This document shows, one piece after another, positions 16,813 to 45,125 of a stretch of DNA of 63,367 bases. The DNA is from Polyangia bacterium. Its GTDB lineage: Bacteria > Myxococcota_A > Polyangia > Fen-1088. The position numbers and the translations under genes are program-made. Positions within the stretch are counted from its first letter, which is position 1; each line of letters opens with the position of its first letter. The stretch is from contig DASRLC010000143.1 of assembly GCA_035648655.1 (NCBI GenBank), positions 1 to 63,367 of the forward strand. The letters are read 5' to 3'. Under the pieces are notes generated by a model that saw nothing but the letters and a program-made list of their open reading frames with translations, was not told the origin of the DNA and did no database searches.

Positions 16813-17679
16813 TTACGGTAAAAGAGATCTGCGTACTGCTTTCAGCGCCTCACGGCGCTGCGCGCTGCTGCTGGGATAAGTCATTTTTAGAGATTTGAAG
16901 GCGTCGAGGATGATGGCCGACACGATCAGCCGCGCATTCTCTTTGTCGTCGGCGGGTACGACAAACCACGGTGCGTGTTTCGTGCTGGTCGCAGTTAGAC
17001 AGGCCTCATACGCCTTGGCATATTGCTTCCAGAACTTTCTCTCTCGAATGTCGCTCTGGCTGACTTTCCAGTTCTTGTCTGGGTCATCGATGCGATCGAG
17101 AAAGCGTTTTCGCTGCTCCTCCTTCGAGAGATGAAGGAAGAACTTGACGATCCGTGTTCCGTTGCGGTGGAGATGACTCTCGAGGTCCACGATAGAACGA
17201 TATCTCCCCTCCCAGATGTCTTCCCCGATTGCTTTGGTGGGCAGCCCCTCTCCGCGCAGGACCTCAGGATGGACCCGGGCTATCAACACCTCCTCGTAAT
17301 AGGATCGATTGAAGATCCCTATTCGGCCGCGCTCCGGGAGATCGCGGGTGGTGCGCCATAGAAAGTCATGCTCCAATTCGCCGGCGCTTGGATGTTTGAA
17401 GCTGAACACCTGACAGCCTTGCGGATTGACCCCGGACATCACGTGTCTGATGGCCCCGTCCTTCCCCGCCGCGTCCATCGCCTGAAAGATGATCAACAGA
17501 GCGTAGCGGTGCGAAGCGTAGTGAAGCTCCTGATGGGCGCTCAGCTGCGCGATATGCTTGGCCAGAATGCTCTTGTACTGTTCCGATGATTCGTAGAAGG
17601 GCTCGACCTTCGTCGGCCACTTGTCGAGATTGACCTGGTCTCCCGCCCCGACCCGGAACGCCTTGGGATGTATTTTCAT
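16813..17679 (-). CDS. ppk2: polyphosphate kinase 2 family (polyP:nucleotide phosphotransferase)
   Basis: '[13 protein letters not shown]' (Walker-A-like), '[10 protein letters not shown]', and a single-domain size of 288 aa. Confidence 0.9.
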
Positions 17680-17689
17680 TGGGTGCGAT

Positions 17690-20245
17690 TCAGGCCGACG
17701 CCGGGCTGTGGGCCTCCGTCTTCACGCGAACGCTCTGGGGCTGTGGCCCACTTTTGGCGTCAGCCTTCGGCCCGACTTTGTGCCGATCGAGAACCCAATA
17801 GGCGAGCAGCTTCACGCGATCATTCACGAGGGCCCACGCGACTGCATAGCCCCACACGAAGAGCGCCCATCCCCAGCCGATCGGCGCCATAAAGAGGCCG
17901 TACACGGCGATAAAGGTCGCCGCGAGCTGCGTGCCCAGCACCGCCAGCCACAGGACCCGCGCCGGTCGTATCGACCAGAATGGGCCGCGTGTCCGCGTCA
18001 AGAAGATGGTCAAGTGGCCGGCCACCGACAGCTTCAAATACATCAGCGTCTGGATGCGCGCGTGGTCGAGATGAAAGACCCGCATGCCTAGAAAAAATAG
18101 CCCGAAGGCGGCAACGACCCCGATGAGACCCAGCACCGTGGAGATCCCCAGGACCACGCGCATGTTCCAAGCCTCGGGCTGATCCCGGTAGTGAACGTTG
18201 TCGTAGGCGATGGACAGGATTGCGCCGTCGTTGAGCAACGCCAGCATCACGATCATCACGGCGGTCACCGGATAGAAGTTGAACACCAAGATCGCCAGCG
18301 TCATGAAGAACAGCACGCGCAAGGTCTCGGCGATGCGGTAGATCGCGTAGCTGTTCATTCGCTGGAAAATTCGGCGGCTCTCCTTGATGGCGTCGATGAT
18401 CACCGACAGACCCGGCGTCGTGAGCACGATGGACGCCGCCGCGCGCGCCGCGTCCGTCGCGCCCGACACGGCGATGCCGCAGTCGGATTTCTTCAGCGCC
18501 GGGGCGTCATTGACCCCGTCTCCCGTCATGCCGACCATGTGACGGTGCTTCTGCAAGACGTCCACGATGTGGAACTTGTGCTCGGGGAACACCTGGGCGA
18601 AGCCGTCTGCCTTCTCGATCAAATCGGCGGCCGCCGCGGTCTCCAGTTGCTTGGCATCGCCGAGGCTGCTGGCATCCAGAATGTTCGCGCCCATTCCCAG
18701 CTTTCTGGCCGTCTCCTGGGCGATGGCCAGTTGGTCCCCGGTCACCATCTTGACCTTCACGCCCATCTGGAGCGCGGTCGCGATGGTCGCCTTGGCGTCC
18801 TCCCGCGGCGGGTCAAATAGAGGCAACACGCCGAGAAGCTGCCAGGGGCCATCCCCCTCGGCGCGCGCGACACCCAACGAGCGAAAGCCGCGGGCCGCGA
18901 AGTCGTTGACCGCCTTTTCCGTGGGAGCCTTCACCTGCTCGGCGTTGGCCGCCAAGGCCAAGATCACCTGCGGGGCGCCCTTGGTCACCTTGAAGGTCTT
19001 TCCGTCTTTCCCTTTCAGGGAGGCCTCGGTGCGCTTGTGCACCGGATCGAACGGTTGAAAATGAACCACGTCATAGGCTCTGAGGGACTCCTTGTCTTTC
19101 ACTCCGGCCAACACCGCCAGGTCGATTGTGTCGTTGTTTTCCGCGCGGGACGCCAACGCGCCGTTGAGGATCACTTGATCGGCGGGGATGTTGTTCACGC
19201 TGAACGGATCGCCGAGCGTCAGCTTGTTCTGGGTCAGGGTCCCGGTCTTGTCCGCACACAGGAGGTCGACACCGGCCAATTCTTCGATGGCCACCAGGCG
19301 GCTGACGATCGCCTTCTTCTTGGCAAGAAGACGCGCGCCGACCGCCATCGTGACAGAGAGCACCGTCGGCATGGCTACCGGGATCGCAGCCACGGTCAGT
19401 ACCAGCGCGAACTGCAAGGTTCCGAGGACTGAATCGCCCCGAAAGATTGCCACGGTGACAATCACCGCGACCAGAGCGACCGCCAGGATGATCAGATAGT
19501 TTCCGATCTTCAACACCGCCTTTTGAAAGTGGCTGACGGTATGAGCTTCCTGAACCAGTTGTGCGGTCTTGCCAAAGTACGTGTTTCCGCCGGTGGCATA
19601 AACCAACCCCTCGATTTCACCCTGACGGATGATCGATCCGGAAAACACGGCCTCACCAGGTTTGCGTGTGGCTGGCAGCGATTCCCCGGTGAGGGCCGAT
19701 TGATCGACCTCCACCGGATCGCCCGCCAGCAACCGCGCATCCGCCGGAACGATGTCGCCGAGCCGCATGCGAATGACGTCACCGGGCACCAGATCGCGCG
19801 CCTCCGGGTTGATCCACTTGCCATCCCGCTTCACCCGAGCCTTGATCGCAAGCCTGGCTTTGAGAGCGGCGATGGCGTCGCTCGCCTGACGCTCCTCCCA
19901 GAAGCCGACGACCGCGTTGGCCGCCAGAAGCAGGAGGATGATGCCGAAATCCGGCCAATGCCGGACCACCGCCGACAGGATCACCGCCACCTCGATCATC
20001 CACGGGATGGGGCCCCAAAAATAGCTGAGAAATTTCAAGAGGGCGTTGGTCTTCTTTTCGACGATCTCATTTGCTCCGTATTGAGTCAGCCGTTTCTTCG
20101 CCTCGGCGTCGCTGAGGCCGTCGGGCGACGACTCCAACCGCTTCTCCACCTCCGGGAGGGGTAAAGACTTGAGATCGTCCTTAGGGTCGGGCTTGGCTCC
20201 CGGCTTCGGTCCGGAAGCAGGCGGCTTGGCGGCGGTGGCTTGCAT
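17690..20245 (-). CDS. P3A-type (plasma-membrane-type) proton-efflux P-type ATPase
   Basis: The N-terminus '[43 protein letters not shown]' is typical of PMA1/AHA-type pumps. Also 'TGES', 'CADKTGTLT' and '[12 protein letters not shown]'. Confidence 0.85.
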
Positions 20246-20290
20246 GGTGGCGTTCCTTCTGTTGTGCTGAGCTATAGATGTCGGGGGCCC

Positions 20291-21079
20291 TCAAACGCTT
20301 TTTGTGGCCCTGACGCCGGCGCGAACGATGTCGAGGAACTGGTCGGCGACGAGGCTGGCGCCGCCGATCAGAGCGCCGTCGATACCCGGCCGGGCAAGGA
20401 GCGCGCCCGCATTGTCCGGTTTGACGCTGCCGCCGTACTGTATGGCGAGCTCTCGAGCCGACGTCTCTCCGAACATCCGACCGAAGAGTCGACGAATGAC
20501 TGCGTGCGCCTCCTGAGCCTGCTCGGGGGTGGCCTGATGTCCCGTGCTGCCGATTGCCCAGACCGGTTCGTATGCGACGATCAGCCGCTTCACGGCGTCG
20601 GCCGAAAGGTGGGCCAATCCTCGGCTGATTTGGCGGTCCAGAACGGCGTCGGTCTGGTTTGCCTCGCGCTCCTCGAGGGTCTCGCCGACGCAAAAGACCA
20701 CGTCGAGCCCGGCCGCCAAAGCGAACTCTATCTTGTGGTTGATGAATTCGTCGGTTTCGCCCAACCTGTGCCGACGTTCGCTGTGGCCGAGGACGACGTA
20801 CTTGCAGCCGAGGTCGAGGAGCATCGTGGGGCTGACCTCGCCGGTGAAGGCGCCGTCCTTCTCGGGATAGAGGTTCTGTGCGCCGAGCGCGACATGACTG
20901 TCCTTGAGAATCTCCCCGACCAGCGCCAAATACGGAAAGGGCGGACAGATCGCCACCACGACTTGGTCGTCCCCACACTCTCCATCTACGATCGCTTGCG
21001 CCAACCGCCGGGCCTCGGTTGCGGTCGTGTTCATCTTCCAGTTGCCGATGACGACCTTGCGGCGCGTCGCAGGTCTCAT
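20291..21079 (-). CDS. tpiA: triosephosphate isomerase
   Basis: 'VIGNWKMN', 'LGHSERR' and 'AYEPVWAIGSTG'. The start at 21079 forms an ATGA overlap with the fba stop. The ORF-track extension to 21748 has no TIM similarity. Confidence 0.92.
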   Translation of the reverse strand: MRPATRRKVVIGNWKMNTTATEARRLAQAIVDGECGDDQVVVAICPPFPYLALVGEILKDSHVALGAQNLYPEKDGAFTGEVSPTMLLDLGCKYVVLGHSERRHRLGETDEFINHKIEFALAAGLDVVFCVGETLEEREANQTDAVLDRQISRGLAHLSADAVKRLIVAYEPVWAIGSTGHQATPEQAQEAHAVIRRLFGRMFGETSARELAIQYGGSVKPDNAGALLARPGIDGALIGGASLVADQFLDIVRAGVRATKSV

Positions 21080-22155
21080 GAGATCCCTACCGACCTCGTG
21101 ACGGACGACTCGCCACCGGGGACGATCTCTTGATCGCCGCGCTCGAACGCGGCGTCGTATTCGCCTCGGCGCGCAGCTGCGTCGCACTCGGCTCGGTGAA
21201 ACAGAGCCTTCTGCGCCGCCGACACGTTGGACTCCGCGCCCCGCCAGATCTCCAGCGCCGGTTGCTGGATGGCGCGGGCAAAGGAAAAGGTCAGCGCCCA
21301 CGGCAACCGCGATTTGAATCGCACGGTCATCGCATTCAGACGGGCGGAAGCCGTTGCGCCGGATTGGCCCCCTGACAGGAAGGCAATCCCCGGGACGGCG
21401 GCGGGAACGGCTCGCAGGAGGCAATTCACTGTGGCGTCGGCCACCTGCTCCACGGTCTCCTGCTTCGGGCAGGTCGCGCCCGGAAGGACCATGTTCGGCT
21501 TCAGGATCATGCCCTCCGGAATGACCCCCTGGGCGAAGAGGTGGGTGAACACGGCGCGGAGAACCTCCTCGGTGACCTCGGAACAGCGCTGCAGCGTGTG
21601 GTCGCCGGCCATCAGCACCTCCGGCTCGACGATAGGGACCAACCCCGCTTCCTGGCACAGGGCGGCGTACCGAGCCAGCGCCTGCGCGTTTGCTTCGATA
21701 CAGGCGCGACTCGGTCTGCGATCGTCCACCGCAATCACGCCGCGCCACTTGGCAAACCGGGCGCCCAGGCCTGAATATTCAGCCAGCCGTTCACGCAGGC
21801 CGTCGAGACCCTCGGTCACCTTTTCGCCGGGATGACCTGCCATGTCCTTTGCCCCGGTGTCGACTTTGATACCGGGAATGATTCCTGCGTCTCCGAGCAC
21901 CTCGACGAACGAGGTGCCGTCCGCCTTGCTCTGCCGAATCGTCTCGTCGAATAGAATCGCGCCACTGATGCAGCGGCCGAGCTGCGGCGTCGTCACGAGC
22001 AGCTCCCGATAAGCGCGCCGGGTCTCTTCATCCTGGGGAATGCCGAGCCGCGCGAACCGCTTGTTACAGGTTCGGGTGCTCTCGTCCATCGCGAGCAGGC
22101 CCTTGTCGCCGCTTACGATCGCCCGCGCCGTCTCAGCTAACTCGTCTGCGTTCAT
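21076..22155 (-). CDS. fba: class I fructose-bisphosphate aldolase
   Basis: 'GLLAMDESTRTCNKRF' and the Schiff-base lysine context 'MILKPNMV'. Start Met 'MNADELAE' at 22155. Confidence 0.9.
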   Translation of the reverse strand: MNADELAETARAIVSGDKGLLAMDESTRTCNKRFARLGIPQDEETRRAYRELLVTTPQLGRCISGAILFDETIRQSKADGTSFVEVLGDAGIIPGIKVDTGAKDMAGHPGEKVTEGLDGLRERLAEYSGLGARFAKWRGVIAVDDRRPSRACIEANAQALARYAALCQEAGLVPIVEPEVLMAGDHTLQRCSEVTEEVLRAVFTHLFAQGVIPEGMILKPNMVLPGATCPKQETVEQVADATVNCLLRAVPAAVPGIAFLSGGQSGATASARLNAMTVRFKSRLPWALTFSFARAIQQPALEIWRGAESNVSAAQKALFHRAECDAAARRGEYDAAFERGDQEIVPGGESSVTRSVGIS

Positions 22156-22338
22156 GTGTGTCTCGCCTTTCTGCCTTCGAGCTCTTCGGTCTTCGCGAGA
22201 CGGCGCTCGAACCGTGCGTCCCCCTCGAACCGCGCGTCGAGAAACACCTGGACCAGCTCGCGAGCCAACTCGCCTCCCGTGACCCGACCACCCAGGCACA
22301 TGACGTTCATGTCGCCACCTACCGCCCCACCCTCGGCT
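22152..22338 (-). pseudogene. C-terminal remnant of ribose-5-phosphate isomerase B
   Basis: In-frame translation 'GGDMNVMCLGGRVTGGELARELVQVFLDARFEGDARFERRLAKTEELE' aligns with the last ~50 aa of RpiB/LacAB (E. coli 'NDTNVLAFGSRVVGLELAKMIVDAWLGAQYEGGRHQQRVEAI'). The N-terminal two thirds are absent. It fills the 183-nt xfp-fba spacer. Confidence 0.6.
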
Positions 22339-24711
22339 CTAGTCGCGACTCCACTTCCAGTCTCGGATCTCTGGCAAGTCTTGCCCGTGCTCATCGATGT
22401 AGTGCTTGTGCTCGATGAGCTTGTCGCGCATCTGTTGCTTCAGGTAGGCGCCCTTGGCACCCACCTCTGGTACCCGGTCGACCACGTCCTCCACCAGGTG
22501 GAACCGATCCAGCTCGTTCTGCACCCTCATGTCGAAGGCCGTCGTGATGGTGCCCTCTTCCTTGTAACCCCGGACGTGAAGGTTGTGGTTGGTGCGACGG
22601 TAGGTGAGACGGTGAACCAACCACGGATATCCATGGAACCCGAAGATGATGTGCTTGTCTTTCGTAAAGAGCGAGTCGTAGTCCTGGTCGCTCAATCCAT
22701 GTGGGTGCTCGGTCTTGGGCTGAAGCTTCATGAGATCGACCACGTTGATGACCCGGATCTTCAGCTCCGGCAGATGTTTCCGGAGAATGGTCACCGCGGC
22801 CAAAATTTCGAGCGTGGGCGTGTCCCCACAACAGGCCATGACGACGTCGGGCTCCGCGCCCTGATCATTGCTGGCCCACTGCCAGATGCCGAGCCCTTCG
22901 GTGCAATGCACGATAGCGGCGTCCATTGTCAACCACTGCGGCAGGGCGTGCTTACCCGCCACGACGACGTTGACGTAGTGCCGGCTCCGCAGACAGTGAT
23001 CGAACACGGACAGCAGACAGTTCGCGTCGGGTGGCAGATAGACCCGAACGATGTCGGCCTTTTTATTGATGACATGGTCGAGAAAGCCTGGATCCTGATG
23101 GGTAAAACCATTGTGGTCCTGCTGCCAGACGTGCGACGCGAGTAAGTAGTTCAACGACGCGATCTTCCGTCGCCAGGGAAGCTCCAAGGTCACCTTCAAC
23201 CACTTGGCGTGCTGGCTGAACATCGAATCGACAATTCGAATGAAGGCCTCGTAGCTGTTGAAGAGGCCGTGACGCCCCGTCAGGAGATACCCTTCCAGCC
23301 AGCCCTCACACTGGTGCTCGCTGAGCATGGAGTCGAGCACGCCGCCAGACGGCGCGAGAAACTCGTCATTGGTCTCTTTTCTGGCGTCCCATTGACGGCT
23401 GGTGGTTTCGAAGACCGCGCCCAGGAGATTCGACAGCGTCTCATCGGGACCGAAGACGCGGAAATTGCGGGGTTCCTGATTCAACGTCGCGACGTCACGC
23501 AGAAACTTACCCAGGACCATGGTGTCTTGGGCAGCGACGGCACCCGGCGAAGGTACGTTCACCGCGTGAGCGCCGAAGTCCGGCATGCGCAGTTCGTGCA
23601 ACAAAAGGCCCCCGTTCGCGTGTGGGTTGGCACCCATCCGGCGGTCCCCCTTGGGCGCCAGCTCGGCCAGCTCCGGCATCAACCGACCGGTGTTGTCAAA
23701 GAGCTCTTCGGCCTTGTAGCTCTTCATCCAACTCTCGAGCTGCTTGACGTGGTCGGGGTGCTCGGAATCGACCAGCAGCGGAACCTGATGCGCGCGGAAC
23801 GTGCCCTCGACCTGCAGGCCGTCGACGACCTTGGGTCCCGTCCAGCCCTTGGGAGATCTGAGGACAATCATTGGCCAGCGCGGGCGCATGTCGTCGTTTT
23901 TGCTCCGCGCCTTGTTTTGAATTTGCCGGATTTCGTCGACCACCTTGTCCAGTGTCGCTGCCATGAGCTGGTGCATCTTTCCCGGATCATCACCTTCCAC
24001 GAAATGGGGCGTCCAACCACAGCCCCGAAAGAAGTGCTCCAACTCCTCGCGTTCGATGCGAGCAAGGACGGTCGGGTTGCTGATCTTGTAGCCGTTCAAG
24101 TGCAAGATCGGCAGCACGACGCCGTCGGTGATCGGATTGAGGAGCTTATTGGAATGCCAGGCGGTCGCCAACGGGCCCGTCTCCGCCTCGCCGTCGCCGA
24201 CGACGCAGGCCACGACGAGATCGGGATTGTCGAATGCGGCGCCGAACGCATGACTGAGCGAGTACCCGAGCTCGCCGCCTTCGTGAATCGAGCCCGGCGT
24301 GGTGGGCGCCACATGGCTGGAGATGCCGCCGGGGAATGAGAACTGTGTGAAGAGCTTCTTCAGCCCGGCCTCGTCTTGCGTGACGTTCGGATACACGTCG
24401 CTCCAGGTACCCTCGAGGTAGACGTTTCCGACAATCGCGGGACCGCCGTGACCCGGCCCCGCGATGTAGAACATGTCCAGGTCGTACTTCTTGATGATTC
24501 GGTTGAGGTGGACGTAGATGAAGTTCTGACCAGGCGTCGTGCCCCAGTGGCCGACCACCAGGGGCTTCACGTGGGACAGCTTCAGCGGCTCCTTCAGGAG
24601 TGGGTTGTCGTAGAGATAGATTTGCCCCACAGACAGATAGTTGGCCGCGCGCCAGTAGGCGTCCATCTTGCGGAGAAGCTCGGGCGTGACGGTGGTGGTA
24701 TCGGTGGTCAT
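22339..24711 (-). CDS. xfp: xylulose-5-P/fructose-6-P phosphoketolase
   Basis: '[18 protein letters not shown]', 'GHWGTTPG', and the signature 'EGGELGY'. ATG at 24711 is preceded by a GAGGAAG-like RBS. Confidence 0.93.
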
Positions 24712-24730
24712 GGTTCTTCCTCGTTGTGAA

Positions 24731-28130: not shown

Positions 28131-28765
28131 GCCGCCACCGTGTCGCCGCTCTGCAACCCAAGGGCCGTCAGTTGTGCACACGTGGACGAATAGTCCGTGT
28201 GATGAATGCTTCGAATCCCCAACCCCTGGGCGATTTCGACGAACATCGGGGTATTGTCTATGAAGACCACCTTTGGCGCCGGGGCCTGAGCGACATCCAG
28301 CGCCAACCGAAAGATCTCGGCGTCGGGCTTGCGGATCTGGACGAAACACGAGGAAATGAAGGCATCCACCAGCGCAGTCAATTTGAACCGCCGAATACGA
28401 TAGGCGTTCAGCTCCCGTGCTTCGTTGCTAACCACCACGATTTTCAGCCCGTATCGATCCTTGAGGCGCGCGACGAGCGCGATCATCTGCGGGTGAGGCT
28501 TCGATTGTGAATGCATGAACCGCCGAAATTGAGACCGAGTAAAATCTCGTTTCTGACAGAACACGACCAGGTCCAGATAGTCGTCGAGGGTGAGCTTTCC
28601 TTCCTCATAGGTCTCGAAGGTCATGTGGTGCCGCTCCTCCATCTCGGCACCGTCCAACTTGAAGGTCTTCGCGGCTCGTCTCCGAGCGTGACGATCCCAG
28701 CCATCGGTGAGCAGCACGCCACCGATATCGAGAAACAACGTCGTTACTGCCGGTGCCCGTCGCAT
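28127..28765 (-). CDS. HAD-superfamily hydrolase
   Basis: 'LFLDIGGVL' (DxG variant of motif I), 'VVSNE' and 'VFIDNTP'. ATGA overlap with the ackA start. Confidence 0.75.
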   Translation of the reverse strand: MRRAPAVTTLFLDIGGVLLTDGWDRHARRRAAKTFKLDGAEMEERHHMTFETYEEGKLTLDDYLDLVVFCQKRDFTRSQFRRFMHSQSKPHPQMIALVARLKDRYGLKIVVVSNEARELNAYRIRRFKLTALVDAFISSCFVQIRKPDAEIFRLALDVAQAPAPKVVFIDNTPMFVEIAQGLGIRSIHHTDYSSTCAQLTALGLQSGDTVAA

Positions 28766-28800
28766 TTGACCCTAGGGCGCAACTGCCGCTCGTATGGTCG

Positions 28801-31347
28801 TCATCGTTGCCACAGAATGTGAGCCGACTCTAAGGGGACGGCGACGCCGGACCGCTGTGGCACGACCCGCGTTGTGTAATCGCTCGCCGGACGTACGGCG
28901 GGCACCCTCGCACGGTAGACCCTGCCACCGGACGCGCTCGGCCGTGTTTGGGTGGAGGTCATCTCCTCCCGGACAGGATTGCCGCCGTTGATCCCGTTGG
29001 CGTAAAGCTCGACCCGGACCGACGTCGGGTCGACAGTACCCAGGAAGAGATCGACTTCGACCTCACGGTAGTCGGAGTGGGTGTCGACCCGGACCTCACC
29101 GAAGCGCACTTGCCCCCACTGTTGGTCCACGGCCCGCAGCCACCCCACAACCTGCTTGCCTCCTTCGCCTTTGTTCGCGGCGCGCTCACGGTAGGCGGCG
29201 GCGGCGGGGAGATAACGTTGCTCGGTATATTCGCGGACCGTTCGGTTTGCGGAGAATCGCGGTGTCAGGCGCGCCATGCTTTGTCGCATCCGCTTGACCC
29301 ATCGGGTGGGAACGCCACTTTTGTCTCGCGCGTAGAACTCTGGGATCACTTCGCGTTCGAGCAGGTCGTAGAGGGCTCCGGCTTCGACGGCGTCCCAGGC
29401 CGGATCGTCGCCATGCACCTGCCCGTCGCCCAAGGCCCACCCGACCTCGGGTGTGTAGGCCTCGGCCCACCAGCCGTCCAATTCGGAGAGGTTGATGCCT
29501 CCGTTGACCAGCACCTTCATGCCGCTCGTGCCGCTCGCCTCCCAGGGGCGCCGCGGGGTATTGATCCAGACGTCGACCCCCTGGACCAGACGCTCCGTCA
29601 GCAGCATGTCGTAGTCGCTGAGGAAGATCGCGTGAGGCCGGACCTCCGGCCGCCGAATGAACTGGATCCATTTTTGAATCAAGGCCTGCCCACCCTGGTC
29701 TGCCGGGTGAGCCTTCCCCGCCAGAATGAGCTGCACCGGACGGTCGGAATTGGACAAGAGGCGCAGCAGCCGCGCCGGATCCTCCAGGAGTAGGTCGGGC
29801 CTCTTGTAGGTCGCGAAACGTCGTGCAAAGCCCAGAGTCAACGCCTTGGGATCAAACAGGTGCTTGGCTCTGTCGACGTCCTCGGGAGATGCCCCCGAGG
29901 ACGTCAGCTCCCGCGAGAATCGGTCTCGGGCGTAGTCAACCAGAGACGCCCGTGCTGTGGCGCGAAAATCCCAAAGGCGAGCATCGGAGACAGCTTGAAT
30001 CTTCTCTTCCAGCGTCTCCGTCGTCCCCAGCCAGCGATCCTTTCCACAAGCTTCGGTCCACAGCTCATCGGCCGGGGCCGAGTCCCAATTCGGCATGTGG
30101 ACTCCGTTGGTGACGTGTCCGATCGGCACCTCGCTCTCGGGCCAATGCGGAAACAGCGGCTCGAAGATGTGCCGGCTCACCTCCCCGTGCAGGCGGCTCA
30201 CGCCATTGACCGCCCCACTGCCCCGAAGGGCCAGATAGGCCATGTTGAAGCTCTCGGACGCGTCGTTCGGGTTCTGGCGGCCGAGGGCCAGCAAACGCTG
30301 GACCGTGATTCCGAGCTTCTGCTCCGCATAACCGCCGAGGTATTGTTCGACCAGGGCGGGAGAGAAGCGGTCGAATCCCGCCGCCACTGCCGTGTGGGTC
30401 GTGAAGAGGTTCCCGGCCCGTGTGACGGCCAGGGCGACTTCGAAAGACTGCCCGCTCCACGCCATGAAGGTCCGAGCGCGCTCGAGAATCGCGAAGGCCG
30501 CATGCCCTTCGTTCAGATGGCAGACCTCCGGGTCGAGTCCCAGCGCGGCGAGCAGCCGCCAGCCGCCGATACCGAGCAGCAGCTCCTGCTCGAGACGAAG
30601 CTCGGGGCCGCCCCCATAGAGCTCGCTGGTGATTCCTCGATGCGCGGCGAGGTTCGCGGCGTCATTGCTGTCCAGGAGATAGAGCTTCGCTCGGCCGACC
30701 CGTACCTCCCAGGCACGAAGCCAAACGGCATAGCCGGGCAAGGACACCTCCAGCCTCAACCATTCTCCGTTCGCCTGACGCACGGGCGCGATGGGCAGCT
30801 GCCCAGGGTCATTGTAAGGAAAGAGAGCCTGCTGGGCTCCGTCCTTGTCGATGACCTGACGAAAGTAACCCTGCTGGTACAACAGCCCCACGCCGACCAC
30901 CGGTATGCCCAAATCGCTGTTGGCCTTGAGCTGATCGCCGGCCACATTGCCGAGGCCGCCCGAATAGATCGGCAGAGCTTCGCTCAGCATGAATTCCATG
31001 CTGAAGTAGGCGGCGCAGGTGAGGGCGCTTCGAGGATGCGTCTTCTGAAACCAACCGGGTGATTCCAAGGCGGCCCGCCTCTTTCGGATCAGGGAATCAA
31101 CGTTTTTCCTGAAAACGGGTTCGGCCAATACGGACCTTAGCTTGTCGCGCGACACCGTCTGCAGGACGACCCAGGGATTGTGCGTGAACCCCCACAGCGC
31201 GGGATCGAGGTCTCGCCACACCCCGTCGGTCGCGTGGTTCCACGACCAGCGCAAGTCCAAGGCCAGCTCGGCCAGAGAATCGAATCCCTCGATATCTCTC
31301 GGCAGGAGTCCGTATGCCGGGTGGTCGACGCGCGGTTGTGTGCTCAT
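28801..31347 (-). CDS. glgP: alpha-glucan (glycogen/maltodextrin) phosphorylase, GT35
   Basis: N-terminal 'LALDLRWSWNH' and the PLP-Lys region 'EASGTSGMKVLVNGG'. Start Met 'MSTQPRV' at 31347. Confidence 0.9.
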   Translation of the reverse strand: MSTQPRVDHPAYGLLPRDIEGFDSLAELALDLRWSWNHATDGVWRDLDPALWGFTHNPWVVLQTVSRDKLRSVLAEPVFRKNVDSLIRKRRAALESPGWFQKTHPRSALTCAAYFSMEFMLSEALPIYSGGLGNVAGDQLKANSDLGIPVVGVGLLYQQGYFRQVIDKDGAQQALFPYNDPGQLPIAPVRQANGEWLRLEVSLPGYAVWLRAWEVRVGRAKLYLLDSNDAANLAAHRGITSELYGGGPELRLEQELLLGIGGWRLLAALGLDPEVCHLNEGHAAFAILERARTFMAWSGQSFEVALAVTRAGNLFTTHTAVAAGFDRFSPALVEQYLGGYAEQKLGITVQRLLALGRQNPNDASESFNMAYLALRGSGAVNGVSRLHGEVSRHIFEPLFPHWPESEVPIGHVTNGVHMPNWDSAPADELWTEACGKDRWLGTTETLEEKIQAVSDARLWDFRATARASLVDYARDRFSRELTSSGASPEDVDRAKHLFDPKALTLGFARRFATYKRPDLLLEDPARLLRLLSNSDRPVQLILAGKAHPADQGGQALIQKWIQFIRRPEVRPHAIFLSDYDMLLTERLVQGVDVWINTPRRPWEASGTSGMKVLVNGGINLSELDGWWAEAYTPEVGWALGDGQVHGDDPAWDAVEAGALYDLLEREVIPEFYARDKSGVPTRWVKRMRQSMARLTPRFSANRTVREYTEQRYLPAAAAYRERAANKGEGGKQVVGWLRAVDQQWGQVRFGEVRVDTHSDYREVEVDLFLGTVDPTSVRVELYANGINGGNPVREEMTSTQTRPSASGGRVYRARVPAVRPASDYTTRVVPQRSGVAVPLESAHILWQR

Positions 31348-33047
31348 GGCGTCTGCTCCGAGAGGGCCGATGGCGGTCGCCCTCTGCCCCGCCGCGAGGC
31401 CGTCCCCGTCGCCAACACGTCGCCGACGATCTGTTGCGCCTCTTCGAGAAGGCGCCGGAGATGCTCCGGGTCCTGGAAGCTCTCGGCATAGATCTTGTAG
31501 ATGCTCTCGGTTCCCGACGGCCGCGCGGCGAACCACCCACTCTTGGTCACCACCTTCAACCCGCCGATGGGAGCGTTGTTGCCAGGCGCGCGCGTGAGAA
31601 CGGCCTCGATCTTTTCGCCCGCCAGCTGGGTGAGCTTGACCTTCTCCGGTGAGAGCGTCGCCAGCAGCTTCTTCTCCTCCGGCGTCGCCGACGCCTCGAC
31701 CCGGTCGTAGACAGGGTCGCCGAGCTCCCGCGTCAGCTCACGGTAGATCTCGCCCGGATCGCGATCCGTCCGGGCCGTGATCTCCGCCGCCAACAAGGCC
31801 GGGACGATTCCGTCCTTGTCGGTCGTCCAGACGCGACCATCCATGCGGCTGAAAGAAGCGCCCGCGCTCTCTTCGCCGCCGAAACCCAGCGAGCCGTCGA
31901 GGAGGCCGTCGACGAACCACTTGAAGCCCACCGGCGCCTCAAAAAGCTTTTGGCCAAGCTTGGCCGCGACGCGGTCGATCATCTGACTGCTCACCACGGT
32001 CTTGCCGATGGCGGCGTCTTTCTTCCACTTGGGCCGATGTTGATAGAGGTAGAAAATTGCGGCGCAGAGGTAGTGGTTGGGCGGTAATAGCCCCGAGCTG
32101 CGGGTCACGATGCCATGCCGGTCGTGGTCCGTGTCGCAGGCGAAGGAAAGGTCGAAGCGGTCCTTCATCGCTATCAGCCGCTGCATCGCATACACCGATG
32201 AGGGATCCATGCGAATCTGACCGTCCCAATCGACGGTCATGAAGCGAAAGGTTGGGTCGACCACCTGGTTGACCACGGTGAGATGCAAACCGTAACGCTC
32301 GCCGATTCGTCCCCAGTAATGAACGCCGGCGCCGCCAAGCGGGTCGACGCCGAGGTTGAGCTTGGCGCCGCGAATGGCATCCATGTCGATCACGCTGGCG
32401 AGATCGGCGACGTAAGTCTCGAGATAATCGTACCGGTGTGTCGTGGAGGCGCCGAGAGCCCGCTGGAAGGGAATCCTCTTCACGCCCAGCAGGCCAGCTT
32501 CGAGTAGGCCGTTCGCTTTCGCCTGGATCCAGTCGGTGACGGCCGATGGGGCCGGTCCACCGCTGGGGGGGTTGTATTTGAAACCGCCGTCGCGCGGTGG
32601 ATTGTGCGACGGCGTAATGACGATGCCGTCGGCCAGCTCTGACTTGCGCCCGCGGTTGTAGGTGAGGATCGCGTGCGAGATGACGGGGGTCGGGGTGTAC
32701 TCGTCCCCCTCGGCGATCATGACCTCCACGCCGTTCGCCGCCAGCACCTCCAAGGCGCTGGCGAAGGCCGGAACCGACAGCGCGTGCGTGTCCATGCCGA
32801 GGAAAAGTCGTCCGTCGATCCCGTGCTCGCCGCGATAAAGGCAAATGGCCTGGGAGATGGCCAGGATGTGCCACTCGTTGAACGCGTTATCGAAGGCAGA
32901 CCCCCGATGTCCCGAAGTCCCAAAGGCAACCCGTTGCTCTGGCACGGAAGGGTCAGGCCTTTCCGTGTAGTACGCCGAGATGAGCCGGGGCACGTTCACC
33001 AGCATCGACGCGTCGGCGGGCTTTCCCGCGAAAGGACTTACCTTCAT
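31344..33047 (-). CDS. pgm: phosphoglucomutase (alpha-D-glucose-phosphate specific)
   Basis: 'VAFGTSGHRGSA' phosphoserine loop, 'CDTDHDRHG', and Pgm-like length of 567 aa. Confidence 0.92.
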   Translation of the reverse strand: MKVSPFAGKPADASMLVNVPRLISAYYTERPDPSVPEQRVAFGTSGHRGSAFDNAFNEWHILAISQAICLYRGEHGIDGRLFLGMDTHALSVPAFASALEVLAANGVEVMIAEGDEYTPTPVISHAILTYNRGRKSELADGIVITPSHNPPRDGGFKYNPPSGGPAPSAVTDWIQAKANGLLEAGLLGVKRIPFQRALGASTTHRYDYLETYVADLASVIDMDAIRGAKLNLGVDPLGGAGVHYWGRIGERYGLHLTVVNQVVDPTFRFMTVDWDGQIRMDPSSVYAMQRLIAMKDRFDLSFACDTDHDRHGIVTRSSGLLPPNHYLCAAIFYLYQHRPKWKKDAAIGKTVVSSQMIDRVAAKLGQKLFEAPVGFKWFVDGLLDGSLGFGGEESAGASFSRMDGRVWTTDKDGIVPALLAAEITARTDRDPGEIYRELTRELGDPVYDRVEASATPEEKKLLATLSPEKVKLTQLAGEKIEAVLTRAPGNNAPIGGLKVVTKSGWFAARPSGTESIYKIYAESFQDPEHLRRLLEEAQQIVGDVLATGTASRRGRGRPPSALSEQTP

Positions 33048-35902
33048 GACTCTTTCGCCGGCAGTGCCCGTTCGATCGCCTTCGACAGGGCGTCGAGTCC
33101 GCTTCGGACATCTGCGCCGAGATGAACGCGCAACGCCCGCCGGTCGCGCTGCACCAGGACCCGGAAGTCCCCCAGCGCCTGCGCCGCCTTCACGACGCCA
33201 AAGCTGAAGCGATGACCGGGGATCTGGAGATCCTGCGCATCGTCGCAGGTCAGCTGCAGGAAGACCCCGCTCGGAGGTCCGCCCTTGTAGGCCTGCCCCG
33301 TTGAATGAAGGAACCGGGGACCAAAGCCAACACAGGTGGCGACCCGACGGGAATCCCGGACCGTGCCCCGAATCGCCTGGAGCTGGCGATCATGCCGGTC
33401 GTTGCGCTCAATGTAGGCGAGCAACGCGAAGTAGTCGTCGGGTCCCAAGCGCTGGAGGTGGGTCCGCAAGTATCCATGCAGCGTCCTATCAGACCCGGCC
33501 GCCCGATCGAGCGCCAGCTTGTTCTTCTCGTCGGCGAATAGCGTGAGCGGGCCATCTTCGCAGAACGGGATCTCCCGCGGGAGCGCGCCGGTCTTCTCGT
33601 AGGCTTTGGTCAGCGTACGTGCCGCGACCTTGCTCGCCTCGACGTCGGGCTGGTTGAAAGGGTCGATGCCGATGATCGCGCCCGCCACCGCCACCGCGAT
33701 TTCCCAGCGGAAGAACTCCTGTCCGAGATCGTGGGGATCGGCGAGCGCAATGCGCACGACCGGCTGTCCGGCATTCTCGAGCGCGTCGACCGCGGCATCC
33801 TGCGCAGCGTCCGGTGCAGCATCGAGCCGAAGGTACGCGAACAGCCGATCGTTGCCGTAGACTTCGGGCGCGCCGAGGGGCTCACGATCGACGGGGATTA
33901 TTCCCTTGCCCACCTTGCCGGTCGATTCGGCGAGGAGCTGCTCGAGCCACGCGCCGAGCTGCGCAATGCCTGGAGAGGCAATGAGGGTGACTTTGTCGCG
34001 GCCGGATCCGACCGACGTCCCGAGGATCGCGCCGAGCAGGACGCCCGGATTCTGCTCGGGCGGAACGCATGACGCGCACGCGTGCGCCATGATCGCGGTG
34101 CGGTCGAGGAAGCGACCCACGTCGACACCCATGACCGCCGCCGGCACCATGCCGAAGTTGGAGAGCGCGGAATAGCGTCCGCCGATGCCGGGCACCCCGG
34201 AGAAGACCCTTTCGAACCGTTTCTCCTCGGCGATCTTTTGCAGGGCGGAGCCCGGGTCGGTGACCACGATGAAGTGCTTCGGTGCCCTCCCGTCGCCGAC
34301 GATCTGGCGAACGCGATCGTAGAAGTAGTCCTTGAGAATATTGGGCTCCAGTGTCGTGCCGGACTTGCTAGAGACGATAAAGAGTGTCTTCGGAAGGTCG
34401 ATGCGGGCTTCCATGGTCCGGATCTGCGCGGGATCGGTCGAATCGAGGACCAAGAACTCCGGATAACCGCCGATGGGTCCGAACGTTCGCGCCAGGACAT
34501 CGGGACAGAGGCTCGATCCGCCCATCCCCAGCACGACCGCGTATTTGAAGTTGCTCTGGCCCTCCTTGGCGAACGCCGCCAGGCCTCGAGCCAGAGTTTG
34601 CTCCCCGTCGGTACTGTCCAGCCAATCGAGCCACTGGTTCTCGTCGTGCCCCGTCCAGAGCGTCGCGTCGCGCGCCCAAAGCCGCCGCACCTTCCCGCCG
34701 GTGCGCCAGTCCTCGATCGTCGCCTTGACCTCCTCATCGAGCGAGGTCGGCAGTCGATAGCTCATCCGGTCGATAGCCGACCTGAGCACGCCGGCACGTT
34801 TCTTCTCGATCGATCCCAGGAGAGCATCGAACGCCGCGGAGAACCCGCTGACACCCTCGTCGAGGAGGCGCGCGGTCAGGTCGTCGATCGAGATCCCAGT
34901 ACCGGCGAGCGTGGCCAAGACCTGTCTGGCGTCGTCTATGTGTTGGTCGAGCTGGTTCCCTGCTTTGCCATGGTCACGGAAGGCGTCGAGCGTCGACGGT
35001 GGGATCGTGTCGACGGTGTGGGGCCCGATCAGCGATTCGACGTAGATCACGTCGCGAAAGCGCGGATCCTTGCTGCTCGTGCTCGCCCACAAAAGCCGTT
35101 GTGGGTGAGCGCCGGACGCGGCCAGCGACGTCCAGCGCGGGCTGCCGCAGACTTCCTTCCAGTCCTGGTAGGCGAGCTTGGCGTTGGCGATGGCCACCTT
35201 GCCGACGAGATCGCGCAGCGTGGCCTGCTCCGTGGCCGGCGCCGATCTGGCCCGAGCCTCCAGGATCGGATCGACGAGAACGTCGAGACGACTGACGAAC
35301 ATACTGGCCACGCTGGCGACGCGGCTCAGATCTCCCCCGCCCGCGCGGAACGCCTCGAGGCCGTCCATGTAAGCTTCGGCGACCTGGCGACACACGGCGC
35401 GTGAGAAGAGCAGCGTCACGTTGACGTTGATCCCCTGGCCGATGAGCTGTTGAATCGCCGGAATTCCCTCGGGCGTCGCCGGAACCTTGATCATGAGGTT
35501 GTCGCGACGAACGGTGCTCCACAGGCGAACGGCCTCATCGATGGTCGCCTGGGTGTTGTGCGCGAGATAGGGCGAGACCTCCATGCTGACGAACCCGTCG
35601 CGTCTGACGAACTCGAGGTAAACGGAATGGAGGATGTCCGCCGCCTGCTGAATGTCCTCGACGGCTAGCTTTTCGTAGATGGTCGAGGCCGTTTCGTCGT
35701 GGCGATTCTCATAACGCTCCAGAGCTGGACCGTAGTCCGTGCTGCCGGCGATGGCCTTTTCGAAGATGGACGGATTCGAGGTCACGCCGCGGATGCCGTC
35801 CTCCTTCACCAATCGCGCGAGCTCACCGCTTTGAAGGAGGTGGCGTCGGATGTAGTCGAGCCAGACCGACTGGCCGCACTCCTGAATCTCATTTATTCCC
35901 AC
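33044..35902 (-). CDS. bifunctional transaldolase / glucose-6-phosphate isomerase
   Basis: N-terminal 'QSVWLDYIRR', 'GVTSNPSIFEKA' and 'MIKVPAT' (Tal), followed by a ~550-aa PGI-like half. GTG start at 35902. Confidence 0.9.
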   Translation of the reverse strand: MGINEIQECGQSVWLDYIRRHLLQSGELARLVKEDGIRGVTSNPSIFEKAIAGSTDYGPALERYENRHDETASTIYEKLAVEDIQQAADILHSVYLEFVRRDGFVSMEVSPYLAHNTQATIDEAVRLWSTVRRDNLMIKVPATPEGIPAIQQLIGQGINVNVTLLFSRAVCRQVAEAYMDGLEAFRAGGGDLSRVASVASMFVSRLDVLVDPILEARARSAPATEQATLRDLVGKVAIANAKLAYQDWKEVCGSPRWTSLAASGAHPQRLLWASTSSKDPRFRDVIYVESLIGPHTVDTIPPSTLDAFRDHGKAGNQLDQHIDDARQVLATLAGTGISIDDLTARLLDEGVSGFSAAFDALLGSIEKKRAGVLRSAIDRMSYRLPTSLDEEVKATIEDWRTGGKVRRLWARDATLWTGHDENQWLDWLDSTDGEQTLARGLAAFAKEGQSNFKYAVVLGMGGSSLCPDVLARTFGPIGGYPEFLVLDSTDPAQIRTMEARIDLPKTLFIVSSKSGTTLEPNILKDYFYDRVRQIVGDGRAPKHFIVVTDPGSALQKIAEEKRFERVFSGVPGIGGRYSALSNFGMVPAAVMGVDVGRFLDRTAIMAHACASCVPPEQNPGVLLGAILGTSVGSGRDKVTLIASPGIAQLGAWLEQLLAESTGKVGKGIIPVDREPLGAPEVYGNDRLFAYLRLDAAPDAAQDAAVDALENAGQPVVRIALADPHDLGQEFFRWEIAVAVAGAIIGIDPFNQPDVEASKVAARTLTKAYEKTGALPREIPFCEDGPLTLFADEKNKLALDRAAGSDRTLHGYLRTHLQRLGPDDYFALLAYIERNDRHDRQLQAIRGTVRDSRRVATCVGFGPRFLHSTGQAYKGGPPSGVFLQLTCDDAQDLQIPGHRFSFGVVKAAQALGDFRVLVQRDRRALRVHLGADVRSGLDALSKAIERALPAKES

Positions 35903-35938
35903 GCAAACCTCCTCGCCCCTCGATCACCTTTGCCGGCC

Positions 35939-36067
35939 TCACGACGGGCTCTTCGCCGGCGTCACCCAGGAGCCGCTCGTAGCCTGCAGCGCCGGAAAGA
36001 TCTTCTTGTGCGCGAGATCTCCGGTCGCGCCGAAAAAGATCAAGGCGTCCGACGAATCCCCCGTCAT
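35939..36067 (-). pseudogene. N-terminal remnant of glucose-6-phosphate dehydrogenase
   Basis: The 42-codon ORF 'MTGDSSDALIFFGATGDLAHKKIFPALQA...' carries the Zwf NADP-binding N-terminus (GATGDLA.RK..PAL), then diverges and stops. The roughly 450 remaining codons are absent. Its ATG shares one base with the gnd stop (TAATG). Confidence 0.6.
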
Positions 36068-37068
36068 TAGTGCTTCTCTTCGTGTCCGCCGAACTGATAT
36101 CGCAGCGCGGAGAGCACCTTGTCGGCGAAGTCTTCTTCGCCCCGCGACGCGAACCTTTGTGCCAGCGCCGTGCTCAGGACCGGAGCGGGGACACCCTCGT
36201 CGATGGCCGCCTTGAGAGTCCACCGGCCCTCTCCCGAATCGGACACGTGGCCCGCGAACCCGCTCAAGTCGGGGCTCTTCTTCAGCGCGGCGGCGGTGAG
36301 ATCTAGGAGCCATGAACCGATCACGCTGCCGTGCCGCCAGGCTTCGACGATATCGGGAAGGTTCAGGTCGTATTGATAGAGCTCGGGGTGACGAAGCGGC
36401 GCCGTCTCGGCGTCGACGACCCGCTTGGCATTCCCAGCGTTGGCGTGCCGAAGAATGTTGAGCCCTTCGGCGTACGCCGCCATGACCCCGTATTCGATCC
36501 CGTTGTGAACCATCTTGACGAAGTGCCCGGCTCCGGACGGTCCGCAATGGATGTACCCCCGTTGCGGCGGCCGACCCTCATCTCGGCGCCCCTTGGTCGC
36601 GTCGTCCCCGGGTGCCAGGGCGGCAAAGATGCCATCGAGCCGCTTGACGACGGCGGGGCTGCCCCCGATCATCTGGCAGTAACCGCGCTCGAACCCCCAA
36701 ACGCCGCCCGAAGTGCCGACGTCGACATAGTGGACTCCGCGCTCGCCGAGCGTCTTCGCGCGGCGAATGTCATCGTGATAGTACGAGTTCCCCCCATCGA
36801 TGACGGCATCGTCCGCGGTAAGGTGCGGCACCAGCTCCCCGAGGGTGGCCTCTACAACCGCGGCAGGCACCATGATCCAAATCGCCCGCGGTGTCTCCAG
36901 CTTGGCGACCAGATCAACAAGCGAGCTGGCGGCGACCGCACCCGCCTTGACCAGATCCAGCCCCGCCTCTGGATGAACGTCGAACACCACGCACCCGTGG
37001 CCGGCTCCGAGCAGACGCCGGACCATGTTCGAGCCCATTCGACCGAGCCCAACCATTCCAAGTTTCAT
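36067..37068 (-). CDS. gnd: 6-phosphogluconate dehydrogenase, decarboxylating (short Gnd/YqeC type)
   Basis: 'MKLGMVGLGRMGSNMVRRL' Rossmann N-terminus from Met 37068, and 'GHFVKMVHNGIEYG'. Confidence 0.88.
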   Translation of the reverse strand: MKLGMVGLGRMGSNMVRRLLGAGHGCVVFDVHPEAGLDLVKAGAVAASSLVDLVAKLETPRAIWIMVPAAVVEATLGELVPHLTADDAVIDGGNSYYHDDIRRAKTLGERGVHYVDVGTSGGVWGFERGYCQMIGGSPAVVKRLDGIFAALAPGDDATKGRRDEGRPPQRGYIHCGPSGAGHFVKMVHNGIEYGVMAAYAEGLNILRHANAGNAKRVVDAETAPLRHPELYQYDLNLPDIVEAWRHGSVIGSWLLDLTAAALKKSPDLSGFAGHVSDSGEGRWTLKAAIDEGVPAPVLSTALAQRFASRGEEDFADKVLSALRYQFGGHEEKH

Positions 37069-37186: not shown

Positions 37187-37335
37187 ACAATCTCCTGTCG
37201 CTGGCGCCCAGCAACTCTCCCTACAGATACGCACCTCCGAGCATTGGGGCCATTCGGGTCTCCCCCGTGTCGGTTGTAAGGGGTTCCGCGAGGGAGGGCA
37301 TTTTCTTCAAAGATTTCGATGTGCTCGACGTCACG
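37187..37335 (-). promoter_or_regulatory. conserved non-coding upstream element, copy 1 (upstream of the gnd array)
   Basis: The reverse complement matches 53241-53387. The first 35 nt are 34/35 identical (cgtgacgtcgagcacaYcgaaatctttgaagaaaa). Further blocks are cccttacaacc, ggggagaccc and gctcggaggtgcgYatctgtaggga (24/25). All frames carry stops, so it is not coding. Confidence 0.55.
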
Positions 37336-41327: not shown

Positions 41328-42413
<1,086 letters not shown>

Positions 42414-45105: not shown

Positions 45106-45125
45106 GGGCAGAAAGTCTAAACACG

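Follow-up and report, generated by a model that had tools for sequence, protein, structure and literature searches.

Several described systems resemble, each in part, the locus treated here. In the bifid shunt and in non-oxidative glycolysis (NOG), Xfp, Tal, Fba and TpiA, together with RpiB, move hexose carbon to acetyl-phosphate (acetyl-P) without redox change, while N-ATPases are laterally transferred ion-exporting ATPases. Prokaryotic ATPases of the P3A type were placed by a 2023 review mainly in methanogens, with their transport function undetermined (PMC10654040). Low O2 induces the lxa locus of Burkholderia cenocepacia, in which ackA and pta are joined by genes for stress proteins and a cation-transporting ATPase; the locus is required for viability under anoxia, and the mycobacterial DosR regulon has a P-type ATPase counterpart (PMC3721108). 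In Acidobacterium capsulatum, genes of glycogen and acetate metabolism are up-regulated at nanomolar O2 (PMC11636273). Here we describe a gene array found in a 63,367-nt stretch of DNA from a Polyangia bacterium (assembly GCA_035648655.1, contig DASRLC010000143.1, hereafter the window). The array runs from 37068 to 16813 and its 14 cistrons follow the order gnd, zwf remnant, tal-pgi, pgm, glgP, HAD, ackA, copA, xfp, rpiB remnant, fba, tpiA, P3A, ppk2. With a probability of roughly 60%, the array is a copy of an island that would act as an emergency power unit, by which stored sugar and polyphosphate (polyP) would be turned into ATP without redox change and the ATP spent on ion pumping.

Distribution and composition of the island

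The window Xfp protein was scanned against one genome per species (GTDB), which yielded at least 597 relatives, and the best 80 were analysed by tblastn and clustering of open reading frames (ORFs) in a neighbourhood of 10 kb on each side of Xfp. These 80 Xfp proteins are 83-90% identical to that of the window and carry the labels of at least 15 phyla: Acidobacteriota, Planctomycetota, Verrucomicrobiota, Chloroflexota, Nitrospirota, Eremiobacterota, Desulfobacterota, Bacillota, Cyanobacteriota, Bacteroidota, Chlamydiota, Fibrobacterota, Elusimicrobiota, Armatimonadota and Gemmatimonadota; Alpha-, Beta- and Gammaproteobacteria are also among the carriers. The loci, selected by their likeness to the window Xfp, come largely from soil and peat metagenome-assembled genome (MAG) projects and some MAG labels may err, yet mis-binning cannot explain the spread over phyla because several copies reside on Mb-scale contigs or closed chromosomes. 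The window genes recur co-oriented in the relatives with 55-90% identity, and the flanking genes are not common to the loci.

A P3A pump gene was found near Xfp in 45/80 loci, in 41 of them downstream on the same strand. Twelve of the 80 contain instead an N-type F1Fo ATPase operon with the order beta-epsilon-Q-R-a-c-b-alpha-gamma, including AtpQ (PF09527) and AtpR (PF12966), as in loci L034, L041, L042 and L063. Either pump type is thus present in 57/80 loci and both in none (0/80). Since two non-homologous ATP-driven pumps alternate in one slot, ATP-driven ion export can be argued to be the selected function, and we regard this replacement, seen in gene neighbourhoods, as strong comparative evidence for such selection. 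The ackA gene lies within the same distance in 40/80 loci and is accompanied by a pump in 36/80, while ppk2 is present in 31/80 and directly follows the pump in 17. The linkage of xfp to a P3A ATPase and ppk2, proposed from the window in a preliminary description of this DNA, therefore recurs across genomes.

The genes that would feed the pathway vary as well. The fuel slot is occupied by glgP/glgX with Pgm and Pgi in 26/80 loci, by a GH130 mannoside phosphorylase with PMM and PMI in 20/80, and by a GH65 phosphorylase with beta-PGM on actinobacterial plasmids. Judged by their gene content, the fuel modules are interchangeable, always phosphorolytic, and all are predicted to lead to fructose-6-phosphate (F6P). 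Genes of stress response or dormancy, encoding PRC-barrel, YflT, ribosome hibernation factor (HPF), slipin, SpoIIAA-like or universal stress proteins (USPs), accompany Xfp in 48/80 loci. The gene orders portray the island as a mosaic of three exchangeable slots, that is, a fuel feed, an Xfp/AckA core, and an ion pump with PPK2.

Organization of the array

Gene calls were those on two metagenome contigs (one ENA, one JGI) whose DNA is identical to the window, and families were assigned by Pfam and NCBIfam hidden Markov model (HMM) scans with curated cut-offs, which follow the bit scores below; the array proteins are deposited in NCBI as HZL17296 (ppk2) to HZL17309 (gnd). All 14 cistrons (14/14) lie on the minus strand, and they comprise 12 intact genes and two remnants. 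The first cistron, gnd (36067-37068), encodes a 333-aa protein resembling the short decarboxylating 6-phosphogluconate dehydrogenases (NF007161, 445 vs 271 bits; TIGR00872). It is followed by a zwf remnant of 42 codons (35939-36067), which specifies the N-terminal 31 residues of glucose-6-phosphate dehydrogenase (PF00479 positions 1-20) and then runs out of frame. The feed continues with tal-pgi (33044-35902), which encodes a bifunctional transaldolase/phosphoglucose isomerase of 952 aa (NF007080, 1419 vs 712 bits), the phosphoglucomutase gene pgm (31344-33047; 567 aa; TIGR01132, 863 vs 778 bits) and glgP (28801-31347), the product of which is an 848-aa alpha-glucan (glycogen/maltodextrin) phosphorylase with a DUF3417 N-domain (TIGR02094, 788 vs 192 bits). 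A gene for a 212-aa HAD-IA hydrolase (28127-28765), for which every NCBIfam match is below its cut-off, is start/stop-coupled to the acetate kinase gene ackA (26910-28130; 406 aa; TIGR00016, 364 vs 293 bits). Then come copA (24731-26920), encoding a P1B-1 Cu(I)-exporting ATPase of 729 aa (TIGR01511, 594 vs 397 bits), xfp (22339-24711), encoding the 790-aa phosphoketolase (NF003619, 1426 vs 962 bits), and an rpiB remnant of 52 codons (22152-22310; PF02502), which corresponds to the C-terminal ~54 residues, or C-terminal third, of RpiB. The array is completed by genes for a class-I fructose-bisphosphate aldolase (fba, 21076-22155; 359 aa; PF00274, E 6e-131), triosephosphate isomerase (tpiA, 20291-21079; 262 aa; PF00121, E 1.5e-91), a P3A plasma-membrane-type H+-ATPase of 851 aa (17690-20245; TIGR01647, 1063 vs 615.5 bits) and, as the last cistron, a single-domain PPK2 of 288 aa (16813-17679), assigned as an ADP-polyphosphate phosphotransferase (NF042973, 504.7 vs 450 bits).

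Both remnants occupy positions where relatives have intact counterparts, namely gnd-zwf in L027, L044 and L055 and xfp-rpiB-fba in L006, L021, L064 and L065. The zwf remnant is 65-68% identical to residues 1-31 of the intact Zwf encoded behind gnd in L027, L044 and L050, and the rpiB remnant is 55-70% identical to the C-terminal part of intact RpiB. As the 42-codon ORF after gnd represents the N-terminus of Zwf, the window Zwf is decayed rather than simply absent. In the HAD protein, motif I reads DIGG and lacks the Asp+2, as in YihX-like sugar-phosphate phosphatases; the HAD-ackA order was also seen in relatives, and we speculate that this protein is a candidate for the missing sugar-bisphosphate phosphatase.

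The junctions are short throughout (in nt: gnd/zwf remnant -1, zwf remnant/tal-pgi +36, tal-pgi/pgm -4, pgm/glgP -4, glgP/HAD +35, HAD/ackA -4, ackA/copA -11, copA/xfp +19, xfp/rpiB remnant +28, rpiB remnant/fba -4, fba/tpiA -4, tpiA/P3A +45, P3A/ppk2 +10). They include five 4-nt overlaps and one of 11 nt, and no gap exceeds 45 nt except the 183-nt xfp-fba spacer filled by the rpiB remnant, while the longest non-coding stretch at the array is the 460 nt upstream of gnd. Sigma-70-like and terminator-like matches inside the array did not exceed the expectation from shuffled sequences; those on the minus strand were all intragenic and none was at a junction. Co-directional genes, short or overlapping junctions and no internal terminator above shuffle level were therefore all found, and the array is operon-like as far as its layout can tell, with the one-strand arrangement, the overlaps suited to translational coupling and the recurrence in dozens of unrelated genomes exceeding chance.

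Most of what the preliminary description had reported on this anatomy was borne out by the gene calls and HMM scans: the 14 co-directional minus-strand cistrons from gnd to ppk2, junctions ranging from -11 to +45 nt, the four ATGA overlaps (tal-pgi/pgm, pgm/glgP, HAD/ackA and fba/tpiA), and the spacer holding an rpiB stub, which proved to be C-terminal RpiB. The gene identities stood at the curated cut-offs, the GlgP -> Pgm -> Pgi -> Xfp -> AckA enzymology was also right, and the internal promoters or terminators named there as counter-evidence showed no more than shuffle-level, intragenic signals. Its list of functions not encoded held for transketolase (Tkt), ribulose-5-phosphate epimerase (Rpe) and an intact Rpi, which were not found among the scanned genes, but the zwf remnant had been missed.

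Module histories and the transcription unit

Mantel-type tests on pairwise protein identities indicated that the parts of the island do not share one history. Xfp co-varies with AckA (rho 0.63, p 0.001), with Fba (rho 0.60, p 0.001) and, less closely, with PPK2 (rho 0.37, p 0.008), and the pump co-varies with PPK2 (rho 0.49, p 0.006), but Xfp and the pump show no co-variation (rho -0.08, p 0.73). Because pump and PPK2 vary together and Xfp and pump do not, the pump/PPK2 pair has been joined to the Xfp core repeatedly, which argues for selection on the combination but is also compatible with more than one promoter. Feed, core and pump may accordingly be several transcription units, each with its own promoter and merely co-oriented. 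The independence of Xfp and pump, the shuffling of modules among relatives and the position of the widest gaps (+45, +36 and +35 nt) at module borders fit this arrangement. We nevertheless consider it unlikely, though a serious candidate, since apart from the spacer with the rpiB remnant the gaps are at most 45 nt and six junctions are overlaps of 4 or 11 nt, the promoter- and terminator-like matches are at shuffle level with none at a junction, and the sole long non-coding stretch is the one upstream of gnd, which contains a conserved element (see below).

Plasmid-borne copies

A tblastn search against PLSDB revealed island-type Xfp (78-81% identity) and the P3A pump (73-77%) together on plasmids from Rhodococcus sp. 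AQ5-07 (NZ_CP046101), Frondihabitans sp. PAMC 28766 (NZ_CP014514) and Lichenicola cladoniae (NZ_CP053710), and the same pair was found on plasmids of Polymorphobacter megasporae and Sphingomonas paeninsulae. The gene order on the Rhodococcus plasmid is slipin, hypothetical, Xfp, class-I Fba, P3A, beta-PGM and GH65, with USP genes and a carbamate kinase gene nearby. On plasmid pSBC2-4 of Caballeronia sp. SBC2 (L089, 171315-185220) the genes for FabI, Pta, AckA, P3A and PPK2 directly precede a set of four integrase genes with an IS91 transposase gene. Here the pump is coupled to Pta-AckA without sugar genes, which suggests that the source of acetyl-P can vary while AckA, the pump and PPK2 stay. 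The site of this pump/PPK2 module looks like an integration hotspot. On pACRY01 of Acidiphilium cryptum the pump lies beside insertion sequence (IS) elements, integrases or IS elements adjoin island copies elsewhere, and USP genes adjoin plasmid copies. From these gene contexts the island is judged to spread between phyla, partly on plasmids.

Foreign origin of the array

The array differs in composition from its surroundings: its GC content is 0.60-0.66 vs 0.66-0.70 in the flanks on both sides, and its GC content at third codon positions (GC3) is 0.72-0.81 vs 0.85-0.88. In low-GC and high-GC hosts alike, the GC content of xfp is drawn toward ~57%, lying between this value and that of the host, which fits transfer followed by amelioration. 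Near-identical genes occur in distant taxa, with DNA 70-78% identical to the window over up to 14 kb and unrelated outer flanks. By its composition and its phylogenetic incongruence, the array is taken to be a horizontally acquired island copy. The window contains no tRNA gene and no convincing direct or inverted repeats flanking the array borders, and no integrase was noticed in it, the flank genes having been scanned only in part.

Two genes next to gnd were considered as further island members and rejected. The glycogen debranching enzyme (GDE) gene, upstream on the array strand, has a host-like GC content, and none of the relatives encodes a homologue next to Xfp; such a homologue is likewise missing for the gene of an 85-aa Cys/Lys-rich protein located between the debranching gene and the array (37529-37786, minus strand). 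Both look like genes of the host. The latter protein is secreted, contains CxxxxxC and CKGK repeats and has no Pfam match; it may resemble DUF2282/bufferin-type metal-binding peptides. Further out, a Bat-type operon (41265-47336, plus strand; MoxR, DUF58, DUF4381, BatA, VWA/TPR) is divergent from the debranching gene, and a two-component pair (49803-51840, plus strand) and a CdaA-type diadenylate cyclase gene (51907-53151, minus strand) follow.

The upstream element and a second low-GC cluster

The non-coding stretch upstream of gnd contains a conserved element of ~120 nt, ~150-280 nt from the gene (37215-37346, minus strand). A second copy with 85.8% identity over 120 nt was detected at 53230-53362 on the plus strand, upstream of a PRC-barrel gene, so that the window holds two copies vs 0 expected. 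Both have the same orientation relative to the downstream gene and the sequences around them are unrelated, making the element a candidate for a shared promoter or leader. The hairpins into which the two copies fold are similar, include one A-U to G-C exchange and have z-scores of -1.5 and -0.3, obtained from two copies only. No match was found in Rfam over 15-42 kb at E <= 0.1, nor was the element found in the island relatives, compared with which six other intergenic regions were also without conserved non-coding DNA; a metagenome scan for the element core gave one match, inside an unrelated ORF, which was judged to be due to chance. A decayed coding fragment was ruled out by frame-breaking indels and by mismatches without 3-periodicity. 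No sigma-70 promoter was found by a scan of either element-bearing region, and a sigma-54-like TGGC...TGC noticed by eye was discarded for its wrong spacing.

The second copy precedes another cluster of lower GC content (53342-62732), which encodes the PRC-barrel protein, an 85-aa membrane protein, a six-BON protein, an HdeA-family chaperone, a DUF2934 protein, a GH15 glucoamylase and an MFS porter, and which is adjoined by a ClC channel gene on the other strand. The PRC-barrel protein is 45-49% identical to those encoded beside Xfp in 32 relatives, and the MFS sugar porter shares 80% identity with a porter encoded next to the island in L060 (a Bacteroidota MAG). Judging by its genes, this cluster seems to belong to the same pool of accessory genes, with a flavour of acid or osmotic stress, and the shared element, present in two copies only, suggests that one control region, specific to the host, now governs both acquired clusters.

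Such genes raise the question of whether the island serves acid resistance, that is, cytoplasmic pH homeostasis in acidic habitats at any oxygen level, with protons expelled by the P3A pump or N-ATPase and with Xfp, AckA and PPK2 merely securing the ATP once respiration breaks down under acid stress. In accord with this, many carriers are from acidic settings (SPRUCE and Stordalen peat MAGs, Acidobacteriota, lichen isolates and Acidiphilium cryptum pACRY01), the HdeA-family chaperone and the ClC channel are encoded near the second element copy, and NhaA and ClC genes lie near plasmid copies. However, the product acetate itself uncouples at low pH, cyanobacteria and Chlamydiota are among the carriers as well, as are Antarctic or desiccated sources, and the habitat labels are biased by dominant metagenome projects. 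An acid-resistance role is therefore rather doubtful as the specific purpose of the island, and it overlaps the emergency power unit proposed above instead of excluding it.

The pump, PPK2, copper ATPase and Xfp

The P3A assignment of the pump is clear, the runner-up family, P3B Mg, scoring 341 vs a cut-off of 611. Its best match in PDB is Arabidopsis AHA2 (5ksd, E 2e-215), the DKTGT phosphorylation site is present, and the proton-path residues N110/R643/D673 align with N106/R655/D684 of AHA2. The window pump is thus predicted to be an electrogenic-type H+-ATPase. In 14 relatives a conserved single-pass membrane protein of ~75 aa without a Pfam family, which does not occur in the window, is encoded immediately upstream of P3A (e.g. 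L023:12424-12651); a role as a small subunit or a regulator of the pump is conceivable.

The PPK2 encoded behind the pump is class I-type by its single domain above the NF042973 cut-off (504.7 vs 450), and polyP-dependent ADP phosphorylation is its predicted activity. A PPK1 gene with all four polyphosphate kinase domains is located in host-GC DNA at 10080-12416 (minus strand), 4.4 kb beyond ppk2; polyP synthesis and the enzyme that would convert polyP to ATP are therefore neighbours.

The copper ATPase has an N-terminal heavy-metal-binding domain (HMBD) and the CPC, YN and MxxSS signatures. The preliminary description had named this Cu(I) exporter as part of the combination with the pathway, the H+ pump and PPK2, but the comparison with relatives did not bear it out as a core partner: an ATPase with 72-78% identity fills the ackA-copA-xfp slot only in L013 and L055 (2/80 loci), and by this distribution the exporter is accessory and confined to a single sub-lineage.

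Among solved structures, that of SeXPK from Synechococcus elongatus PCC 7942 (8io8, 1124 bits) is the closest to the window Xfp. All eight residues of the SeXPK ATP-regulatory motif PW-X2-H-X3-YR-X7-H-X-R-X31-R are present in the window Xfp at residues ~695-745, but the linker between the R711 and H719 equivalents consists of 6 residues vs 7 in SeXPK. In the island-type Xfp clade the motif residues were found in 62/81 proteins, with the 6-residue linker, and the X7 linker in none. Xfp may be turned on by falling ATP, but its linker is one residue short of that of SeXPK.

Proposed function of the island

GlgP, Pgm and Pgi yield F6P without ATP cost. Xfp yields acetyl-P and erythrose-4-phosphate or glyceraldehyde-3-phosphate without redox change, and AckA yields ATP; given Tkt, Rpe and a bisphosphatase, what is left over can be recycled by Tal, Fba and TpiA. 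The array encodes this phosphorolytic route from glycogen to F6P (GlgP, Pgm and the Pgi half of Tal-Pgi), with the host debranching gene just upstream. According to the proposed mechanism, when respiration fails, for which anoxia, acid, starvation and desiccation are candidate triggers, glycogen would be cleaved with phosphate instead of ATP. Xfp would cut F6P and xylulose-5-phosphate to acetyl-P with no net redox change, the remainder being recycled in the manner of the bifid shunt or NOG by Tal, Fba and TpiA along with Tkt, Rpe and a bisphosphatase of the host. AckA would convert acetyl-P to ATP and acetate, and PPK2 would supply extra ATP from polyP, which could be made by the PPK1 encoded 4.4 kb away. 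The P3A pump would use this ATP to expel protons, and so membrane potential and cytoplasmic pH would be kept; in the window variant ATP would also drive Cu(I) export.

The maintenance-energy and pH/proton-motive-force module put forward in the preliminary description gains from the pump replacement, the phosphorolytic fuel slots and the stress genes, but the few expression data found in papers are neutral to negative. Limiting O2 did not induce xfp and ackA in Methylacidiphilum fumariolicum (PMC3404531). For the island transaldolase SBF1_3160003 of the peat MAG Desulfosporosinus SbF1 (L065, contig 316), no expression was detected in anoxic microcosms according to the published metatranscriptome table (PMC6372793). 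Several other points also weigh against a power unit. Neither a regulator nor a USP is encoded within the array itself, and a search for FNR and CRP boxes (at most 1 mismatch) in the intergenic DNA of 81 loci gave 10 and 3 matches, respectively, at no consistent position ahead of island genes. Tkt, Rpe and a known fructose- or sedoheptulose-bisphosphate (FBP/SBP) phosphatase were not found among the scanned window genes, several flank ORFs lying outside the scan, so the full cycle depends on host genes elsewhere. Since rpiB and zwf are decayed, the window copy may be eroding. No pump is encoded within 10 kb of Xfp in 23/80 relatives, some of which are on short contigs, and because the loci were chosen by Xfp similarity and are mostly soil and peat MAGs, inference from habitat is biased.

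The enzymes Tal, Pgi, Pgm, Gnd, Fba and TpiA belong to central metabolism, gnd-zwf pairs occur in some relatives and sugar porters are encoded near some islands, as would be expected of a heterofermentative or pentose-phosphate operon for growth-phase carbohydrate catabolism that pumps and PPK2 have joined as hitch-hiking neighbours. Yet the fuel genes encode phosphorylases of storage or compatible-solute glycans instead of systems for uptake or kinases, and 57/80 loci have a pump, with non-homologous replacement in one slot. This pump is coupled to ppk2, and the Caballeronia plasmid couples it to Pta-AckA with no sugar genes. Dormancy-type genes co-occur and zwf of the oxidative branch is decayed in the window, all of which makes a growth operon very improbable. 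That the island stores energy, with PPK2 building polyP or AckA running toward acetyl-P for signalling or acetate assimilation, is very improbable: both reactions are reversible and PPK1 is nearby, but PPK2 matches the NCBIfam equivalog for ADP-polyphosphate phosphotransferase, the array has no pta or acs, and the link to an ATP-consuming pump fits ATP supply better.

The emergency power unit can be taken one step further. Tentatively, and at odds somewhat short of even, we propose that a plasmid-spread, self-contained cassette, made up of a phosphorolytic fuel feed, a natural NOG-type source of both acetyl-P and ATP gated by an ATP-sensing Xfp and a dedicated, polyP-backed electrogenic ion pump, would hold the membrane potential without respiration in bacteria of many phyla, obligate aerobes included.

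In full-text literature searches, no paper came up that reports a linkage of xfp with PPK2 and an ATPase of the P3A or N type. The preliminary description had not recognised the combination as a described operon; this stood, in that no paper describing the cluster was found, but the cluster is not a one-off, being a widespread mosaic island. The cross-phylum, partly plasmid-borne island is apparently undescribed, and all of its parts are known enzyme families. If the proposed function is true, survival energetics, that is, membrane potential and internal pH maintained from sugar and polyP, move between phyla as one package, which bears on the persistence of 'aerobic' soil and peat bacteria through anoxia, acid and drying. 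Bacterial P3A pumps gain a testable metabolic context and, if the cassette reading is true, a first defined physiological role; the island also points to a natural counterpart of engineered NOG. Cultured plasmid carriers suitable for testing are Rhodococcus sp. AQ5-07, Frondihabitans sp. PAMC 28766, Lichenicola cladoniae and Caballeronia sp. SBC2.

Comparison with described systems

The likeness to the lxa locus and the DosR regulon suggested in the preliminary description holds for the theme (ackA and a cation ATPase), and the Pta-AckA-P3A-PPK2 set of the Caballeronia plasmid recalls the lxa gene set. It does not extend to the USP, alpha-crystallin and Anr/DosR-type regulator, none of which is encoded in the window array. 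Phosphoketolase is unmentioned in the lxa paper (PMC3721108). Membership of lxa and DosR rests on regulation, whereas the window array is known from its genes.

With the bifid shunt and NOG the array shares Xfp, AckA, Tal, Fba and TpiA, and the relatives share RpiB as well. The island does not include Tkt, Rpe or a bisphosphatase and rpiB is decayed in the window, so the full rearrangement set is not present. The stoichiometry of such a route would be up to 3 acetyl-P per hexose, and in the island the product would feed AckA and an ion pump, and not growth or acetyl-CoA. For the cyanobacterial phosphoketolase-acetate kinase pathway, a gene linkage to PPK2 or a P3A pump is not described. SeXPK, which is ATP-inhibited, is the closest solved relative of the window Xfp; the latter keeps the eight motif residues but has the shorter linker.

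The N-ATPase F1Fo operons are non-homologous to P3A; in 12 relatives they fill the slot held by the P3A pump in the window, which itself carries P3A. Compared with the plant and fungal H+-ATPases AHA2 and Pma1, the window pump shares the proton acceptor Asp, the Arg of transmembrane helix TM5 and the Asn of TM2, but it lacks their regulatory termini. Finally, unlike in the methanogen-centred view of prokaryotic P3A ATPases (PMC10654040), the pump is found here to be widespread in bacteria and to lie within a defined metabolic context.

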